The notes beneath the pieces were generated by a model that worked only from the letters and a program-made list of their open reading frames with translations, ran no database searches and had not been told where the DNA came from. Source: an uncultured virus (IMG/VR IMGVR_UViG_3300012271_000008) (lineage: Duplodnaviria; Heunggongvirae; Uroviricota; Caudoviricetes). From it: 20,000 bases of DNA. This document shows, piece after piece, positions 3,621-20,000 of this stretch; within the stretch, counting starts at the first letter, position 1, and every line of letters begins with the position of its first letter. A program made the translations under genes and the position numbers. The stretch lies in the IMG/VR virus record IMGVR_UViG_3300012271_000008, positions 54,713-74,712 of that record. One strand, given 5' to 3'.

Positions 3621-3713
3621 GGTCAATTAAACTCATTGGTAGAGTTCTAGACTTTAAGTGATTAAGTTCACCCAAATCCTGAGTAATAAGTTCGATTCTT
3701 ATATTGACTGCTA
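3621..3713 (+). tRNA. tRNA-like element, possibly Trp(CCA)-derived, with an 18-nt insertion in the anticodon loop
   Basis: Acceptor GGTCAAT/ATTGACT with G discriminator; D arm ACTC-ATTGGTA-GAGT; T arm ATAAG-TTCGATT-CTTAT; anticodon region CTAGA-CT-[TTAAGTGATTAAGTTCAC]-CCA-AA-TCCTG pairs poorly; ends G-CTA. Confidence 0.65.
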
Positions 3714-3725
3714 TTATTTAATATT

Positions 3726-4262
3726 ATGAATATAATTAATTTTAAAGTAATAGCTATACTAACACTAATAACAATTAGTGGATTTTGTATAACACCTACA
3801 AAGGTTGTGGAAAAACCTGTAGTTATAGAAATCCTATGTGAAGAAGATACTTACATAGAAGAAAAAGAAAACATATTTAATTTAATTGACAAATACTGTG
3901 CAAAATACAATGTATGTAATGCCGTAGTATATCAAATAGGATTAAACGAATCTGGATGGCCTAACCCTAATAACTTAGAATATACTCAAAAAGTATGGGA
4001 TTGTGGTGCATTTAGTTATGGTGATATGCAAATATGGGAACCAACTCGTAAAAGTATGTTTAAAAAACTTAATTTAAGTGATACAACTAGAGAAAACTGT
4101 TTGCACGCTAGCATATATTATTTACATTTAAAATATGTAAAATATGGCAGTTGGTATAAAGCTAGATTTGCTTACGGTAGAGGAAGTTGGAGACCAGAAA
4201 ATACTTGGAAACCAATAGAAAAAAGATTTATGAACAAACACAACTGGAAACAATATGACTAA
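3726..4262 (+). CDS. lytic transglycosylase (SLT/lysozyme-like) with N-terminal signal or TM anchor
   Basis: Catalytic ES motif (IGLNESG), YGDMQI (GLMQ-like), FAYGRG (AYNxG-like), hydrophobic N-terminus. Confidence 0.75.
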   Translation: MNIINFKVIAILTLITISGFCITPTKVVEKPVVIEILCEEDTYIEEKENIFNLIDKYCAKYNVCNAVVYQIGLNESGWPNPNNLEYTQKVWDCGAFSYGDMQIWEPTRKSMFKKLNLSDTTRENCLHASIYYLHLKYVKYGSWYKARFAYGRGSWRPENTWKPIEKRFMNKHNWKQYD

Positions 4263-4267
4263 TAAAA

Positions 4268-4879
4268 ATGAAGATAACTAAAAATAAAGTTTTTTCTAAT
4301 AGAAGTTTTAACAATAAAATATATTACAAGACTCATAAAAATGCACCAAAATATGGTGCAGAGTCTTGTTTTTCATTTTTAAATTTAAACTCAAACTATT
4401 TAAAAATTGAATTACACAAACATTCTGATATTACAAGAAAAGAATTCTTAGAATATTTAAGAAAAATGAAATTAATTTTTAAAGATTTAGAATACAAAAA
4501 AGAAAAAAAGAAATATTATTTAATTATGGGTAGTTCTTTATTACCTAAAGGTACTTTAAATTCTAAAAAAAAAACTCTTGCAATTCTAACAATAATTAGA
4601 TTTTTATGGGAAAGCCATGGAGATTGTTATTCTGTTTCTTTTATTAAAGAATTTGTAAATGATAATCGTAGAATAGAAACTATGATTAAATTTTCAGAAG
4701 CATTCAATAATAATAAAGATAAAATCTATTATTCTTCAGGACATGGTATAGATAGCCTCAATAATAAATCAAAAGGAATAGTAATTCAAACTTCTAAAGA
4801 ATTTTTTAGTAAAGATAAAGATAGTGTGACAGGTTATTTTGCAAGAAAAGAATCTAAATTTAAACCAAAAGCAATATGA
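4268..4879 (+). CDS. hypothetical protein (203 aa)
   Basis: Long ORF with ATGA coupling to the amidotransferase. Confidence 0.75.
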   Translation: MKITKNKVFSNRSFNNKIYYKTHKNAPKYGAESCFSFLNLNSNYLKIELHKHSDITRKEFLEYLRKMKLIFKDLEYKKEKKKYYLIMGSSLLPKGTLNSKKKTLAILTIIRFLWESHGDCYSVSFIKEFVNDNRRIETMIKFSEAFNNNKDKIYYSSGHGIDSLNNKSKGIVIQTSKEFFSKDKDSVTGYFARKESKFKPKAI

Positions 4880-5484
4880 AAAAAGTATATGTAATAGGAA
4901 ATGCAGTAAATTATGCTGAATTTTTAAAAGATTTTGAACTAACTAATGATTCAAAATCAGCAGATCTTATAATTTTAACAGGAGGAGAGGATGTAAGTCC
5001 TGAACTTTATGAAGAAGATTCTCATCCACATACAGGAAACAATCCTGTAAGAGATGCTAGTGAAATAAATTCTTGGAATAAAATAAAACAAGAAAATCCT
5101 GATGTTTTAACTATGGGTATATGTAGAGGGTCTCAATTGGGATGTGTGTTGTCAGGTGGAAAACTTGTACAACATATGAATCATCCTTATATGCACAAAG
5201 TTTCTACACCAGAAGGTAAAGATTATGAAGTAACTAGTACCCATCATCAAATGCAATATCCTTTTAATCTTAATGAAAAAGATTATGAAATTAAAGCTTA
5301 TTGTAAAATAACAGGTAGTACTTATGCAGAAGGAGTTCCAGCAGGTATGGAAAAACCTCCTGTAGATCCTGAAATAGTATTTTATAATAAAACTAAAATA
5401 TTAGCAATACAAGGTCATCCTGAAATGGTTCCTAACAGTGAATTTGCTTTAGAAGTAAATAATCTGGTTAATAGTCTTATTTAA
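4876..5484 (+). CDS. second class I glutamine amidotransferase (peptidase C26-like)
   Basis: TGGEDVSP, GICRGSQ, STHHQ and IQGHPE motifs. Confidence 0.92.
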   Translation: MKKVYVIGNAVNYAEFLKDFELTNDSKSADLIILTGGEDVSPELYEEDSHPHTGNNPVRDASEINSWNKIKQENPDVLTMGICRGSQLGCVLSGGKLVQHMNHPYMHKVSTPEGKDYEVTSTHHQMQYPFNLNEKDYEIKAYCKITGSTYAEGVPAGMEKPPVDPEIVFYNKTKILAIQGHPEMVPNSEFALEVNNLVNSLI

Positions 5485-12800: not shown

Positions 12801-14295
12801 ATGAAGAAGGAAATAATTACTAAAGAGGAGAATAGCGAAGTTGAAGTTTTTTTGCAGAAACTTATTGATTCAAAAAAATTACCAACACACGTTAAGACAG
12901 TATCAGATGCGTTTGCAATTAAGCAAATGGGAGAAGAGTTAGGTTTTGCAACAATGCAAAGCTTTCACTATATAATTCCAATACAAGGTAAACTTAGTTT
13001 ATCAGCTAAAGCAACAGGAGCACTGTTACGAAAGGGAGGAATACAATTTCAAACTGTAGAAGATGGAGTATACGTTTATGAAGACGGAACTGTATCTGAA
13101 TACAAAGACTCTACAAAAAAGCCTATTGACATTAGAACAAAAATTCGTTTTGTTCGTGGAGATATGGAAGAATTTACCACATTCAGTTGGAAAGATGCAG
13201 AAGGCATGGGACTAACTGGAAAAGACAATTGGAAGAAAATGCCTAAAATTTGGGCAGGATAAATTGGATAAATTGTCTGGAAAGCTAAGTAAAATATTAA
13301 AAAGAAAGCATTGGTGTGTTAGATTCCACCGCAGAGGGTCAATACCTAATTAATCAAATGGTAGTGTGAGTACACTTTCTTTTTATATTTTATAAGCCAA
13401 TCAGCAGCCAAGGTTAGAGCTAAAAGTTCTTTCAAGGTTCAACGACTAGGTATTGAAACTGCAGTCCGCAGAATATAATATACCCACGAAAATCCAAAAT
13501 AAATTTGTTTATATCATTTAATTGCCGTACCTTTGTAGTATGGAAAAATTTAAAAAATTAAAGGGGTATGAAGGTTGCTATGAAATTAGCAACTTAGGAC
13601 GTGTCAAAAGTTTAAAAAGAAAAGGGGTACCAAAAGATATATTTAAATCTACATGTACAAACCCTAATCATGGATACATTGACATACAGTTAAGACTAAA
13701 TAATAAAGTGTCTACAAAAAAGCTACATAGATTAGTAGCTCAAACATTTTTAAAAAATCCATTAGATTTACCAGTTGTAAATCATAAAGATGGTAATAAA
13801 ATTAATAATGTGTTAGATAATTTAGAATGGTGTACACATAAAGAAAATATTTTACATGCTCATAAAATGGGTTTAACTAATATGTGCAGAGGTAATAATC
13901 ATCACAATATTAAAATTAAAGTAGAAGATTTATGTAAAGTTTTTAATATGAAAAAAGAAGGATTTAAAAATTATGAGATTGCTAAAATCTTTGATGTTAA
14001 TCCAGCTACCATATCAAAAATTCTTAAAGGAAAACGTCAAACAAATTTATTATGATATAGTCTGACCTATATGGAAACATATAGAAGTAGAGGATAAAGA
14101 GCCTTTACGTTAACAAAAGTGAAATTTATGTTATGGGCTCGTTGCTTATCAGCAGGAGCTAACAGAATTGGTGCAGATCTTTTATTGGGTCTTTATACCA
14201 CAGAAGAATTATTTGACCATATGGTTGAAGGTTCTACTGAGGTAAACCGTAATGAAGAAGGAGAAATTATTGAAATTGTTGAAGAAAAAAAGTAA
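12801..14295 (+). CDS. RecT/Red-beta-like single-strand annealing protein, spliced: join(12801..13244,14122..14295), 205 aa
   Basis: Removing the intron gives in-frame ...GKDNWKKMP|KFMLWARCLSAGANRIGADLLLGLYTTEEL..., matching the W-x2-x-P-x2-ML-x2-R...G(L/M)Y-x2-EE C-terminal signature of RecT-family proteins. Confidence 0.8.
13504..13535 (+). promoter_or_regulatory. Bacteroidota housekeeping-sigma promoter (-33 TTTG, -7 TAnnTTTG) inside the intron
   Basis: TTTG (13504-13507), 20-nt spacer, TACCTTTG (13528-13535), 4 nt before ATG 13540. Confidence 0.7.
13540..14055 (+). CDS. NUMOD4-HNH homing endonuclease with C-terminal HTH (171 aa; start revised to ATG 13540)
   Basis: NUMOD4 KGYEGCYEISNLGRVKS; HRLVAQTF..VNHKDGNKINN..NLEWCT..EN..HA; C-terminal EIAKIFDVNPATISKI. 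Confidence 0.92.
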   Translation: MEKFKKLKGYEGCYEISNLGRVKSLKRKGVPKDIFKSTCTNPNHGYIDIQLRLNNKVSTKKLHRLVAQTFLKNPLDLPVVNHKDGNKINNVLDNLEWCTHKENILHAHKMGLTNMCRGNNHHNIKIKVEDLCKVFNMKKEGFKNYEIAKIFDVNPATISKILKGKRQTNLL

Positions 14296-17179: not shown

Positions 17180-17914
17180 ATGAAAAAACACAATTTTACT
17201 ATAGGAACAGATCCAGAATTTTTCCTTAAAAACACAAGCAACGGCAATTTTGTACCAGCATCAGCATTCTTTTTAGAACATAATAAGGATAATCCAAAGA
17301 AATTTGGTAATGGCTTTGGAGTACTAAGAGATAATGTAATGGTTGAATTTAATATTCCTCCTTCAGATTGCAAAGAAGATTTTATTGCAAACATTTATCA
17401 AGGATTAGATTTAATAAGAAGAAGTGTACCAGAAAACATAGATTTTTCTTTTCAAGCTTCTGCTGAATTTTCAAGTGAAGATTTAAAGAATTTTGAAGGA
17501 GGTTATGAATTTGGTTGTTCTGAATATTTTAATGTTTATGATCTAGTAATTAAGAATCCTAAAAAAACTAATACAAGATTTGCAGGAGGACATATTCACG
17601 TTGGAATGCCAACTAAAATGACAGAAGATGATTTAGAAAGAGTAATTAAAATATTTGATTACAATTTAGCTGTACCATCTTTTGAATTAGATGATGATGA
17701 ATTAAGAAGAGAATACTATGGTACTCCAGGTTGTTTTAGAATAACACCTTATGGATTTGAATATAGAAGTTTGTCTAATTTTTGGTTAGCAAGTGACGAA
17801 TTAATATCTTGGGCATACGACCAAGTAGAATTAAGCATAGAACAGTTTTATGATGGAATAATAATTTCTGCAGAGCAAGTTTTACAATCAATAGAATTAA
17901 AAGAACAAGTGTAA
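17180..17914 (+). CDS. phiEco32-like COOH-NH2 ligase type 2 (glutamine synthetase/GCS fold)
   Basis: IGTDPEFFL, DNVMVEFNIPP, RFAGGHIHVG, RREYYGTPGCFRITPYGFEYRSLSNFWL. Confidence 0.9.
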   Translation: MKKHNFTIGTDPEFFLKNTSNGNFVPASAFFLEHNKDNPKKFGNGFGVLRDNVMVEFNIPPSDCKEDFIANIYQGLDLIRRSVPENIDFSFQASAEFSSEDLKNFEGGYEFGCSEYFNVYDLVIKNPKKTNTRFAGGHIHVGMPTKMTEDDLERVIKIFDYNLAVPSFELDDDELRREYYGTPGCFRITPYGFEYRSLSNFWLASDELISWAYDQVELSIEQFYDGIIISAEQVLQSIELKEQV

Positions 17915-18267
17915 TGGATAAAATTAAACAAAATAATAAATTAATTGCTATATTTTTTTTAAAAACATTAGATAATGTGTATTATAGATTACCTATTAGT
18001 ATTATAAGACATACTAGTTATGGATTTGTAAATTTAGGAAATGAACACAAATTAAAATTTAATACTTCTTGGGATTGGTTGATGCCATTGTTAGGTAAAA
18101 TAGAAAGCTTAAATTACAAAATTACTATTAGTTCAGATTGTACTACTATTTCTAATAAAAGTACAATAATAATTGAAGCTCAACATAAAGGAGATGACAA
18201 ACTTAACAACACTTATAAATCAGTGTTACAATTTATTAATAAATATAATAAGAAAAATAAAATATGA
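17914..18267 (+). CDS. hypothetical protein (SWDWLMP motif)
   Basis: NNKLIA..LKFNTSWDWLMP..KIESL; coupled to neighbours on both sides. Confidence 0.75.
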   Translation: MDKIKQNNKLIAIFFLKTLDNVYYRLPISIIRHTSYGFVNLGNEHKLKFNTSWDWLMPLLGKIESLNYKITISSDCTTISNKSTIIIEAQHKGDDKLNNTYKSVLQFINKYNKKNKI

Positions 18268-18635
18268 AAGTAGCAGTTTACGGAACATTAAGAGAAGGTT
18301 ATAATAATAACGGAGTTTTAGGAGAGTCAGTTAAAATAGGATTAGGTTGGACTAAAGATAAATATCAAATGTCAGCAAATGGAATTCCGTTTGTACATCC
18401 TAATATAGAACTATCACCTATTAGAGTTGAAGTGTATGAAGTTACACCAGCACAAATGCCTATGGTAGATAGATTAGAAAGTTATAATCCCCAAGATCAC
18501 GATGGTTCTTGGTATAAGAGAGTTCCAACAGAAATTACTTTAGATGATGGAGAAGATATAGAAGCTTCTGTATATTTTAATGAAGATGAAGGAGTAGAAA
18601 TTATCAAAACAGGAAATTATGCGGACTACAGATAA
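18264..18635 (+). CDS. gamma-glutamylcyclotransferase (GGCT/AIG2-like)
   Basis: N-terminal VAVYGTLREG, EVYEV, VDRLE (catalytic Glu), YKR. Confidence 0.9.
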   Translation: MKVAVYGTLREGYNNNGVLGESVKIGLGWTKDKYQMSANGIPFVHPNIELSPIRVEVYEVTPAQMPMVDRLESYNPQDHDGSWYKRVPTEITLDDGEDIEASVYFNEDEGVEIIKTGNYADYR

Positions 18636-19443
18636 AAAAATAAAGAAAAAAACCTTATTACATGTTAGGACAAGACATCCTTCTCATGGTATATTAAGAA
18701 GAAATCCATTATTAAGAACATTTGGTAAAAGAATTCTATTACGTTTAGGAAGTATAACTCAATTAAATGGCATTAGACCTTATAATTTAGAAATAAATTC
18801 AGTAGATGGTATTAAGAATAGCTCTGATAAGCTTAAAATGAAGAAATGCTTTGATTTAGCTAAAGTATCTCATTGTTTTTGGTATAGATTTGATTTAACT
18901 TCTAAAACTTTTTTAAAAAATGGAGTATTAAATGATGATAAAAAAACATTAAATGATATGTTTTTTCCTATCATAGCTAAAGGACGTTTTGGATCAAGAG
19001 GTAATGCTAATACAAAAATAGATAACATAGAAGAATTCAATACTTGGTTAAATGGTAAAGATTTATCTAGATATTTATTTGAATTATATTTTAATGGAGC
19101 TAGGGAGTATAGATTACACGTTAGTAAAAATGGATGTTTTTATACAAATAGAAAATTAAGAAAACAAGATGCAGAAGAAAGATGGTTTTTTAACAATTTA
19201 AATTGTGCATGGATGTTGGAAACTAACCCTTTATTTAAAAAACCAGATACTTGGGATGCAATTGTAGAAGATTGTGTAAATGCTTTAGATGCTGTTGGAT
19301 TAGATTTAGGAGCATTTGATGTTAGAACTAATAAAGAAGGAGATTGGAGAATTATTGAAGTTAATTCTGCACCTTCATTTGGTGAGATTACATCAGAAAA
19401 ATATATTCAAGAACTTAATAAAATAATACAAGAAAACAAATGA
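18619..19443 (+). CDS. ATP-grasp peptide/amide ligase (RimK- or YheC/D-like)
   Basis: DKLKMK, PIIAK, GSRG loop, REYRLHV, GLDLGAFDV, IIEVNSAPS (ExN metal motif). Confidence 0.88.
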   Translation: MRTTDKKIKKKTLLHVRTRHPSHGILRRNPLLRTFGKRILLRLGSITQLNGIRPYNLEINSVDGIKNSSDKLKMKKCFDLAKVSHCFWYRFDLTSKTFLKNGVLNDDKKTLNDMFFPIIAKGRFGSRGNANTKIDNIEEFNTWLNGKDLSRYLFELYFNGAREYRLHVSKNGCFYTNRKLRKQDAEERWFFNNLNCAWMLETNPLFKKPDTWDAIVEDCVNALDAVGLDLGAFDVRTNKEGDWRIIEVNSAPSFGEITSEKYIQELNKIIQENK

Positions 19444-20000
19444 TAATATTCATATATTTATTACTATTAATAATAAGTTATGCCATAGGTATAGCAAATA
19501 ATAAAATCAATTTTAATACACTTTATTGTGGATTAATTGGTTATTGTGGAGAAGTTACACCTGATAAAAATGCTTTAAAAATATTAGGAATTATGAATGA
19601 TACTAGAGGAGGAGATTCTTGTGGTATTTATTCAAATAAAGAAGTATTTTATGGAGTTTATAATAATTCTTATTTTAAAGACTTTTTTGTTGATAAACCT
19701 TTTCCTACTATAAGTAAAGAAGATTTTACTTGTATAATGCACGCAAGAAAATCAAGTGTAGGTTGGCAAAAAACTTCTGCAAATGCTCATCCTTTTCTAT
19801 TAAAAAATCAAGAAGGTGAAGCTGGTTTTGTAGGTGCTCATAATGGTACTTTAAGAAATTGGATACAATTATGTAAAGACAGAAACATTAGTATTATTAA
19901 TATTGATGTAGATTCACATGGATTACTTGCTTGTTTATATAAAGACAAAACTTTTAAAGTTTTAAGTGAGTATGAAGGAGGTGCAGCTTTATTATTTAAA
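19440..20000 (+). CDS. class II (Ntn) glutamine amidotransferase with a 29-aa hydrophobic leader; 3'-truncated by the window; not in ORF track
   Basis: Manual translation from ATG 19440 (ATGA overlap): MIIFIYLLLLIISYAIGIANNKINFNTLY-CGLIG...RGGDSCG...HARKSSVG..NAHPF..AHNGTL..DVDSH. Confidence 0.9.
   Translation, partial: MIIFIYLLLLIISYAIGIANNKINFNTLYCGLIGYCGEVTPDKNALKILGIMNDTRGGDSCGIYSNKEVFYGVYNNSYFKDFFVDKPFPTISKEDFTCIMHARKSSVGWQKTSANAHPFLLKNQEGEAGFVGAHNGTLRNWIQLCKDRNISIINIDVDSHGLLACLYKDKTFKVLSEYEGGAALLFK

Follow-up and report, generated by a model that had tools for sequence, protein, structure and literature searches.

Organisation and reading frame of the amidotransferase gene

The gene considered here lies at the 3' end of a 20,000-nt stretch of DNA from an uncultured virus (IMG/VR record IMGVR_UViG_3300012271_000008, positions 54,713 to 74,712 of that record; hereafter the window), and its product is predicted from sequence to be a class II, N-terminal nucleophile (Ntn) glutamine amidotransferase (GAT) of a crAss-like phage, the precursor of which carries a leader of 29 residues. 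The features that make up this part of the window are given below, whereby hydrophobicity refers to the Kyte-Doolittle scale (KD15) and secondary structure to the AlphaFold2 (AF2) model.

18619..19443, + strand: ATP-grasp gene (RimK/S6-glutaminyl-transferase-like; PHROG phrog_2599, E 4.3e-33; Pfam R2K weakly, E 0.04)
19440..19442, + strand: start codon of the amidotransferase gene; from the TAA (19419-19421) up to the Cys codon no other start is in frame
19443..19496, + strand: hydrophobic leader core IIFIYLLLLIISYAIGIA (residues 2-19), a predicted transmembrane (TM) helix (KD15 2.89; helix in AF2; no charge)
19497..19526, + strand: polar/basic linker, residues 20-29 (NNKINFNTLY), which ends at the presumed scissile bond Tyr29-Cys30 (coil in AF2)
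19527..19529, + strand: Cys30 codon TGT, presumed N-terminal nucleophile of the mature enzyme (invariant; aligned with Cys1 of PurF)
19527..20000, + strand: class II (Ntn) GAT domain, truncated where the window ends (Pfam GATase_6, E 3.3e-6)

The start codon of the amidotransferase gene, ATG 19440-19442 (+), overlaps as ATGA with the stop codon TGA 19441-19443 of the upstream open reading frame (ORF) of 274 residues (18619-19443), and the frame opened by it encodes MIIFIYLLLLIISYAIGIANNKINFNTLY, followed by Cys30 (TGT 19527-19529) and GLIGYCG. The nearest preceding in-frame stop is the TAA at 19419-19421, six codons 5' of ATG 19440. Between this ATG and the Cys30 codon no ATG, GTG or TTG is found in frame, neither in the window nor in an identical locus (L005), and the codons at positions -2 and -1 relative to Cys30 are CTT and TAT, of which neither is a near-cognate start. 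Translation can start only at ATG 19440. All that the original prediction had read from this region, i.e., an ATG at 19440 coupled to the ATP-grasp stop, a leader of 29 residues and Cys30 at 19527-19529, was confirmed from the window sequence.

The same frame was recovered from other sequence records. A contig of a public run (X1) spans 19200-19590 with 0 differences from the window, the intervals 19367-19517 and 19500-19650 are each matched without gaps, at 2 changed letters, by a 151-nt contig of a different study (X2), and an independent viral contig of 88,950 b encodes the same 186 residues. The sequencing runs listed as holding this sequence include no RNA run. A sequencing error as source of the leader is excluded by this gap-free agreement of independent contigs. 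It had been considered beforehand that an error at about 19524-19526 or a non-canonical start next to the Cys codon would undo the assignment; the contigs of public runs show no error at that place, and it is CTT TAT that precedes the Cys codon. The gene is cut at base 20000, which is the end of the window and likewise of the 74.7-kb viral contig, and the full protein (P0002) comprises 587 residues.

Identity of the enzyme and of its nucleophile

When P0002 was compared as a single sequence with the PDB (phmmer), only chance matches were obtained and a family profile was needed. The profile of 150 relatives matches PurF (E 1.3e-17 to 9e-17), plus GFAT1 and GlmS, whereby the profile Cys is aligned with residue 1 of mature E. 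coli PurF (1ecb, 6czf) and the GHtR, HNG and DSe motifs of the profile are aligned with their PurF counterparts. Within the 150 aligned relatives Cys30 is invariant (150/150), and so are G31, R56, H101, R103, N135, G136 and D158, in the forms with and without leader alike. Following the PurF and GlmS literature, we take the Asn-Gly pair (N135, G136) to be the oxyanion hole, and Arg together with Asp presumably binds glutamine.

The AF2 model of P0002 has a mean predicted local distance difference test value (pLDDT) of 85.3 and exceeds 95 for residues 31-270 of the GAT domain. Foldseek matched the model to GFAT-1 (6svq, E 6.5e-12), PurF (1ecf, 2.6e-10) and GlmS (1xff, 6e-10), and also to AsnB (1ct9) and EgtC (4zfk), so that model and structural matches together identify the Ntn alpha-beta-beta-alpha sandwich fold of a class II GAT (MEROPS C44). 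On the basis of the alignment, Cys30 is the homologue of Cys1, the N-terminal nucleophile of class II amidotransferases. These are cytoplasmic enzymes the nucleophile of which must be residue 1 and must carry a free alpha-amine; usually the extension that precedes it is Met or a short polar propeptide.

The C-terminal part of P0002, residues 315-587 (L005:3943-4761), was modelled with a pLDDT of 84 as a beta-rich domain and a three-helix bundle. For these 273 residues, Pfam yielded no match beyond a sub-threshold DUF7584, Atlas no usable match and Foldseek no PDB match at E <= 0.001, and VIA-align returned only generic helical-bundle matches (Z <= 8.0) to model residues 181-273, the remainder being barely covered.

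Occurrence of the leader among relatives

An exhaustive phmmer search brought up 1,803 cluster representatives with E <= 1e-3, 103 of them reaching <= 1e-30; its best 150, combined with the first database matches, gave the 158 proteins that were examined. Within this set, 105 proteins possess a leader of 20-48 residues (median 28) and 49 start with Met-Cys, the remaining 4 being fragments or unclear (P0023, P0038, P0075, P0158); two rows were assigned by hand and P0146 by eye. Both forms were already present among the first 11 database matches (5 with leader, 6 Met-Cys): g040 of phage phi14:2 has a leader of 31 residues in which V-I-S precedes the Cys, and cr108_1 and Lbo-JY46 start with Met-Cys, having a stop 2-4 codons upstream. 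The extension is either 1 residue or at least 20 residues long, the only shorter ones being those of P0038 and P0075, which both look N-truncated.

The same question was approached at the level of DNA without use of a gene caller. The 191 pattern matches at viral loci, found with a 35-row alignment, yielded 172 confirmed ones, the best 80 of these were kept, and 81 loci (L005-L085) were read. Forty-five carry a leader ORF, one (L070) a leader plus Met at position -1, 33 start ATG-TGT and two GTG-TGT. The 46 leader loci hold 40 distinct leader sequences (L005 and L073 are one contig; L063 is phi14:2); in each of the 46 the frame stays open behind an ATG located at -24 to -35. In the leaderless loci the start codon abuts the Cys codon in 35/35, with an in-frame stop 1-17 codons upstream; lineages without leader always start exactly Met-Cys. 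The possibility of homologues starting Met-Cys, which the original prediction had allowed for in combination with a read error at 19524-19526, was hence found in its first part, yet not in its second.

From start codon to upstream gene, the median gap is 10 nt both with (46 loci) and without leader (35 loci), and as a consequence of this equality the leader codons are to be placed inside the gene and not in a spacer. Gaps to the upstream gene (>=100 residues) of 299 nt in 3 leader loci and of 796-837 nt in 3 leaderless loci were also seen, suggesting that small genes were inserted just 5' of the GAT start in some phages.

Some starts deserve separate mention. The two GTG-TGT loci are L018 and L025 (about 4012-4017), with a stop 5 codons upstream. 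L070 (~3991-4065) combines a full hydrophobic leader with an ATG at -1 (…KPTNYLM followed by CGIFAWVG) and is possibly an intermediate between both forms or a gene with two starts. In the Klebsiella phage KpnP_VR7901 (OM103162.1; L086:2486-2600) the annotated coding sequence of a type II amidotransferase begins 16 codons past the Cys (CGLVGLAG); here no ATG lies 5' of the Cys, ATT directly precedes TGC, and GGAGG is located 8 nt upstream. Judged from this arrangement, it looks likely that an ATT start gives Met-Cys, so that the deposited start would be wrong.

Anatomy of the leader and selection acting on it

For the leader, counts were taken over 103 or 105 sequences as indicated, and hydrophobicity was estimated by the Kyte-Doolittle scale and by a crude sum on the Hessa scale. 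The common layout consists of Met with a short, mostly uncharged N-tail, an uncharged hydrophobic run (median 18 residues) and a Lys/Pro-rich linker. In the AF2 model of the window protein, residues 2-19 are helical (pLDDT about 92 and 85 in two blocks) and residues 20-29 are coil (pLDDT about 62). The hydrophobicity of the leader goes beyond chance: stop-free blocks of 28 residues, taken from all six frames of the window with its GC content of 26%, are as hydrophobic as the leader in 5/476 cases, and a KD15 of at least 2.0 within the first 28 residues was reached by 0/689 non-GAT ORFs (>=100 residues, 81 loci) as against 43/46 leaders. The residues found most often in the linker, numbered backwards from the Cys, are as follows.

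Position -9: F 43/103
Position -8: K 55/103
Position -7: P 27/103
Position -6: K 43/103
Position -4: N 40/103
Position -3: V 25, T 21, I 16 of 103
Position -2: L 88/103
Position -1: Y 20, S 20, N 17, A 16, G 13 of 103

The window protein fits this pattern with K(-8), N(-4), T(-3), L(-2) and Y(-1). Charge is distributed unevenly around the hydrophobic run: the net charge after it is higher than before it in 95/103 leaders, Lys or Arg occurs between helix and Cys (-10..-1) in 101/105, any charged residue within the same ten positions in 102/105, and Lys or Arg in residues 2-6 in only 20/105, the window protein having none there. With its uncharged helix of TM length and its positive-inside bias, the leader thus has the make-up of a transmembrane signal-anchor. 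Within the helix, a His at -16 was observed in 27/105 leaders, often followed by Tyr (21/105), which marks one large subgroup; the window protein has Ser13-Tyr14 at -17/-16, one place upstream of the His-Tyr position.

Selection was assessed by the ratio of nonsynonymous to synonymous differences (pN/pS), which for pairs chosen by mature identity (36-44 pairs, not independent of each other, so that the values are descriptive) amounts to 0.29-0.33 in the leader and 0.17-0.20 in mature residues 1-100, and for pairs chosen by leader identity (61 pairs, again not independent) to 0.38 and 0.34, respectively. On these comparisons the leader is under purifying selection. Whether a hydrophobic leader is conserved among homologues had been left to an alignment by the original prediction; it was found in 105/158 proteins and 46/81 loci read from DNA, with a pN/pS of about 0.3. 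Homologous leaders are present in more than 100 diverged relatives, and that of the window protein belongs to this widespread, conserved and modular type.

The leader as a module

A FastTree phylogeny of the mature domain (153 rows) revealed leader and Met-Cys forms to be interleaved, with 35 changes of state, at least 15 of them being required by branches with good support. When the tips were shuffled, a mean of 41 changes was obtained and 7/500 shuffles were as low as 35. A direct view of such a change is given by comparison of L060 and L056 (leader) with L061 and L067 (Met-Cys), between which the leader codons, and only these, are cleanly inserted or deleted within closely similar flanking DNA. 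The two forms were not told apart by any column of the GAT domain (lowest p, without correction, 0.0008). The linker motif common to distant clades suggests one origin and many losses; the count on the tree cannot tell gain from loss, and recombination is possible.

Genomic context

Upstream of the amidotransferase the window holds further genes, which are listed in the following.

17180..17914, + strand: COOH-NH2 ligase (Pfam PF14395, E 4.5e-15)
18264..18635, + strand: gamma-glutamyl cyclotransferase-like (GGACT/AIG2) gene (Pfam PF06094, E 9.9e-17)
492-1220 and 4876-5484, + strand: two Peptidase_C26 / class I GATase genes (E 4e-30 and 2e-14)
3621-3711, + strand: tRNA-Leu (anticodon TAA), in the replication-module region of the 26% GC phage
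13522-14055, + strand: NUMOD4 + HNH_3 homing-endonuclease-type gene, between the helicase and primase region

The amidotransferase belongs to a cassette in the order COOH-NH2 ligase, an ORF of 117 residues, GGACT, ATP-grasp and GAT, which is followed by an Amidoligase_2 gene (downstream in L005) and adjoins genes for primase, DnaB and DNA polymerase A. Among isolates, Cellulophaga phage phi14:2 (Crassvirales) is the nearest; it shares the cassette, as does cr108_1. Taken together, the two class I GATase genes, GGACT and three ligases make up an unusually rich set of gamma-glutamyl-type enzymes for one phage. A scan of a genome collection returned 5 loci, all from contigs of metagenome-assembled genomes (MAGs) and none from an isolate genome, and yielded no information on a host. 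The MAG contigs L088 (104,255 b), L087, L089 and L090 bear the labels Allosphingosinicella, uncultured archaeon, Polaribacter and Chitinophagaceae; as one of them is of crAss-like size, they look like phage contigs that were binned into MAGs.

Among the 30 largest ORF families at the 81 loci no association of the leader with a neighbour gene was detected (smallest Fisher p 0.044, uncorrected), and the conserved neighbours of the GAT at these loci include no membrane protein, none of them being hydrophobic. The original prediction had gone on from the leader to a system aimed as a whole at a membrane or envelope substrate. This extension is not supported: about a third of the cassettes have no leader in spite of being otherwise identical, and the neighbours include neither a family that tracks the leader nor a conserved membrane protein.

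Proposed role of the leader and alternative explanations

The reading preferred here, which is considered probable, is that the leader combines two functions, namely that of an N-out/C-in membrane anchor and that of a propeptide which is removed by Ntn-type self-cleavage. Initially, the leader helix would dock the nascent protein in the inner membrane. The N-out/C-in orientation, and with it a cytoplasmic enzyme, is predicted because positive charge lies after the helix and not before it, as according to the positive-inside rule the basic flank of a TM helix stays cytoplasmic. The catalytic domain would hence remain in the cytoplasm, tethered by the linker, and upon folding the Ntn domain would itself cut the Tyr29-Cys30 bond through the N-to-S acyl shift that PurF enzymes with a propeptide (MEROPS C44) also use. 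Thus, the alpha-amino group of Cys30 would be freed, the glutaminase turned on and the enzyme released, whereby a peptide of about 29 residues would be left in the membrane. The leader would then serve as a latency and localisation device that takes no part in the chemistry, which would be the reason for it having been dropped by many lineages.

Cleavage at Tyr29/Cys30 is the natural expectation from the homology of Cys30 to the N-terminal nucleophile. In the window protein and its relatives the extension abuts the Cys, and several features point to this Cys as the mature N-terminus: leaderless forms start exactly Met-Cys (35/35 loci), the best-conserved leader residue (Leu at -2) adjoins the presumed scissile bond, and the P1 residue at -1 is variable, unlike in the site of a sequence-specific protease. 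Self-cleaved N-terminal extensions are described for class II GATs of MEROPS C44 in section 6.1 of PMC9140057.

Several observations weigh against this proposal. Frequent loss means that the leader is dispensable. The Hessa sum is -3.7 for the leader of the window protein but below 0 in only 14/46 DNA-verified leaders (median +0.9), so that by this crude sum many leaders are only marginal TM segments, for which insertion is plausible but not certain in all cases. Furthermore, known GAT propeptides are short and polar, and none of them is known to be membrane-inserted. As extensions of intermediate length are absent, processing could need the whole leader, e.g., for a membrane-bound protease, and would then not be purely intrinsic. 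Finally, the -3/-1 rule of signal peptidase is fitted by 48/105 leaders.

The last point leads over to export, i.e., to the assumption that the leader directs the protein out of the cytoplasm, either as a Sec signal peptide for signal peptidase I or as the signal of a lipoprotein, and that the enzyme is periplasmic or located on the envelope. An N-terminal hydrophobic segment with a cleavage-type site directly before the Cys is what such a signal would look like, V-I-S before the Cys of the phi14:2 protein agrees with it, and in Gram-negative penicillin V acylases, which are Cys-Ntn enzymes, Cys1 is exposed by signal-peptide cleavage. However, the charge layout is the reverse of that of a signal peptide (Lys or Arg at -10..-1 in 101/105 leaders, in residues 2-6 in 20/105), and in the window protein itself the core is preceded by no Lys or Arg and the c-region contains Lys22; with Tyr in position -1 it is one of the 57/105 that fail the -3/-1 rule. 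The median run of 18 residues is of TM and not of h-region length. A lipobox ([LVI][ASTVI][GAS]C) is present in 1/105; in the window protein T-L-Y stands in its place and the core is separated from the Cys by a charged linker, and lipidation would moreover block the thiol and the amine that are required for catalysis. Leaderless sister proteins must be cytoplasmic, and the transfer of amide from glutamine together with ATP-using partner ligases is cytoplasmic chemistry. Export is thus held to be very unlikely, and of the TM- or signal-like pro-segment of the original prediction the TM-like half stands (run median 18, AF2 helix 2-19), whereas the exporting half is not supported, given the reversed charge layout, Tyr at -1 and the near absence of a lipobox. 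The leader could also be an artefact of a wrong start, a sequencing error or an open AT-rich spacer, the real start being at the Cys. Its GC content of 16%, compared with 26% for the window, favours codons for Ile, Leu, Phe, Tyr and Asn in the stretch, and 8% of random stop-free window blocks reach a KD15 of at least 2.0. This explanation is almost certainly wrong: no start or near-cognate codon adjoins the Cys, independent contigs agree without indels, all 46 leader loci are open with their ATG at -24 to -35 and a median 10-nt gap to the upstream gene, pN/pS is about 0.3 and the motif positions are conserved, so that start, contig, openness, selection and motif evidence refute it.

Two further explanations accept the leader as a membrane segment. 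If it were a permanent, uncleaved anchor, the enzyme would be tethered with an internal Cys30, or the protein would be a scaffold or an ammonia-dependent subunit. The conserved TM-like helix and basic linker speak for such an anchor. Nevertheless, the start abuts the Cys codon in 35/35 leaderless loci and 49 protein representatives start with Met-Cys, from which it appears that selection keeps a free N-terminal Cys; the invariance of the catalytic-type residues extends equally to both forms, Leu at -2, which no other leader position exceeds in conservation, is next to the bond presumed to be cut, and class II GATs are known to depend on a Cys1 with free alpha-amine. A permanent anchor is therefore regarded as quite improbable. 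In the other explanation, the membrane peptide of about 28 residues is the main product, which has its own role in infection and is released from the enzyme as its carrier. Selection at the protein level beyond hydrophobicity (F-K-P-K at -9..-6, His at -16 in 27/105) and the behaviour of the leader as an independent module would fit this, but the leader was lost at least 15 times with no visible compensation in neighbour genes, a free-standing homologue of the peptide was not seen (no search aimed at one was made), and the conserved linker positions adjoin the presumed cleavage site, which would suit a processing role, too. This reading is deemed unlikely, and so is a related one, a membrane-docked zymogen with two products, in which self-cleavage at the membrane would set free an active amidotransferase for the cassette and would leave behind, in the membrane of the host, a conserved peptide of about 28 residues (N-out, basic C-tail) that acts in infection on its own account; repeated precise loss of the module would then reflect a host-specific need for the peptide or for delayed activation.

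Comparison with known systems

The anchor that cuts itself off, as favoured above, shares features with several known systems. Closest are the PurF-type amidophosphoribosyltransferases (Bacillus subtilis PurF, human PPAT; MEROPS C44), which are likewise Ntn GATs with an extension before the catalytic Cys that must go. In the PurF family, as in the phage family, some members possess an extension and others start Met-Cys, as illustrated by Cys1 of E. coli PurF in 1ecb. Known PurF propeptides are, however, short (11 residues) and polar, whereas the phage leader comprises 20-48 residues with an uncharged helix of TM length and a basic linker, and no sequence likeness between the two is recognisable by eye; the acceptor part of the phage protein differs as well. 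Leader length, TM-like core and basic linker are what is new relative to the PurF propeptide, whereby the observation is well supported and the mechanism unproven.

Single-pass N-out/C-in signal-anchor proteins have the same uncharged N-terminal helix of about 18 residues with a positive C-terminal flank (95/103 phage leaders), but their anchor is normally permanent, whereas the phage protein would be expected to lose it through the nucleophile that follows the linker. The phage protein also resembles proteins with lipoprotein or Sec signal peptides, and the penicillin V acylases of Gram-negative bacteria, in that a hydrophobic leader ends right before a Cys, which presumably becomes residue 1 here as well; the phage leader differs from them by the missing positive n-region, the charge before the Cys, the rarity of the lipobox (1/105) and the cytoplasmic class of the enzyme.

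The phage amidoligase cassette was reportedly described by Iyer et al. in 2009 for phiEco32-like and crAss-like phages. It comprises COOH-NH2 ligase, ATP-grasp, GGCT/AIG2, GAT-II and Amidoligase_2, and the window, supplemented by L005, has the same gene set. The leader on the GAT member of the cassette was not found mentioned in the papers that literature searches returned; these yielded no paper on a hydrophobic leader of a class II GAT, supplements not being covered.

A large phage-specific family (1,803 representatives at E <= 1e-3) hence places a membrane-type helix before its nucleophile, as seen in 105/158 members examined. If it is self-cleaved, the leader would represent a membrane-tethered zymogen switch that occurs naturally on an Ntn enzyme, and would offer a first clue to the place and time of action of the phage amidoligase cassette, which has long been unexplained. 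With natural pairs of leader and leaderless forms at hand and phi14:2 being culturable, the leader hypothesis is directly testable.

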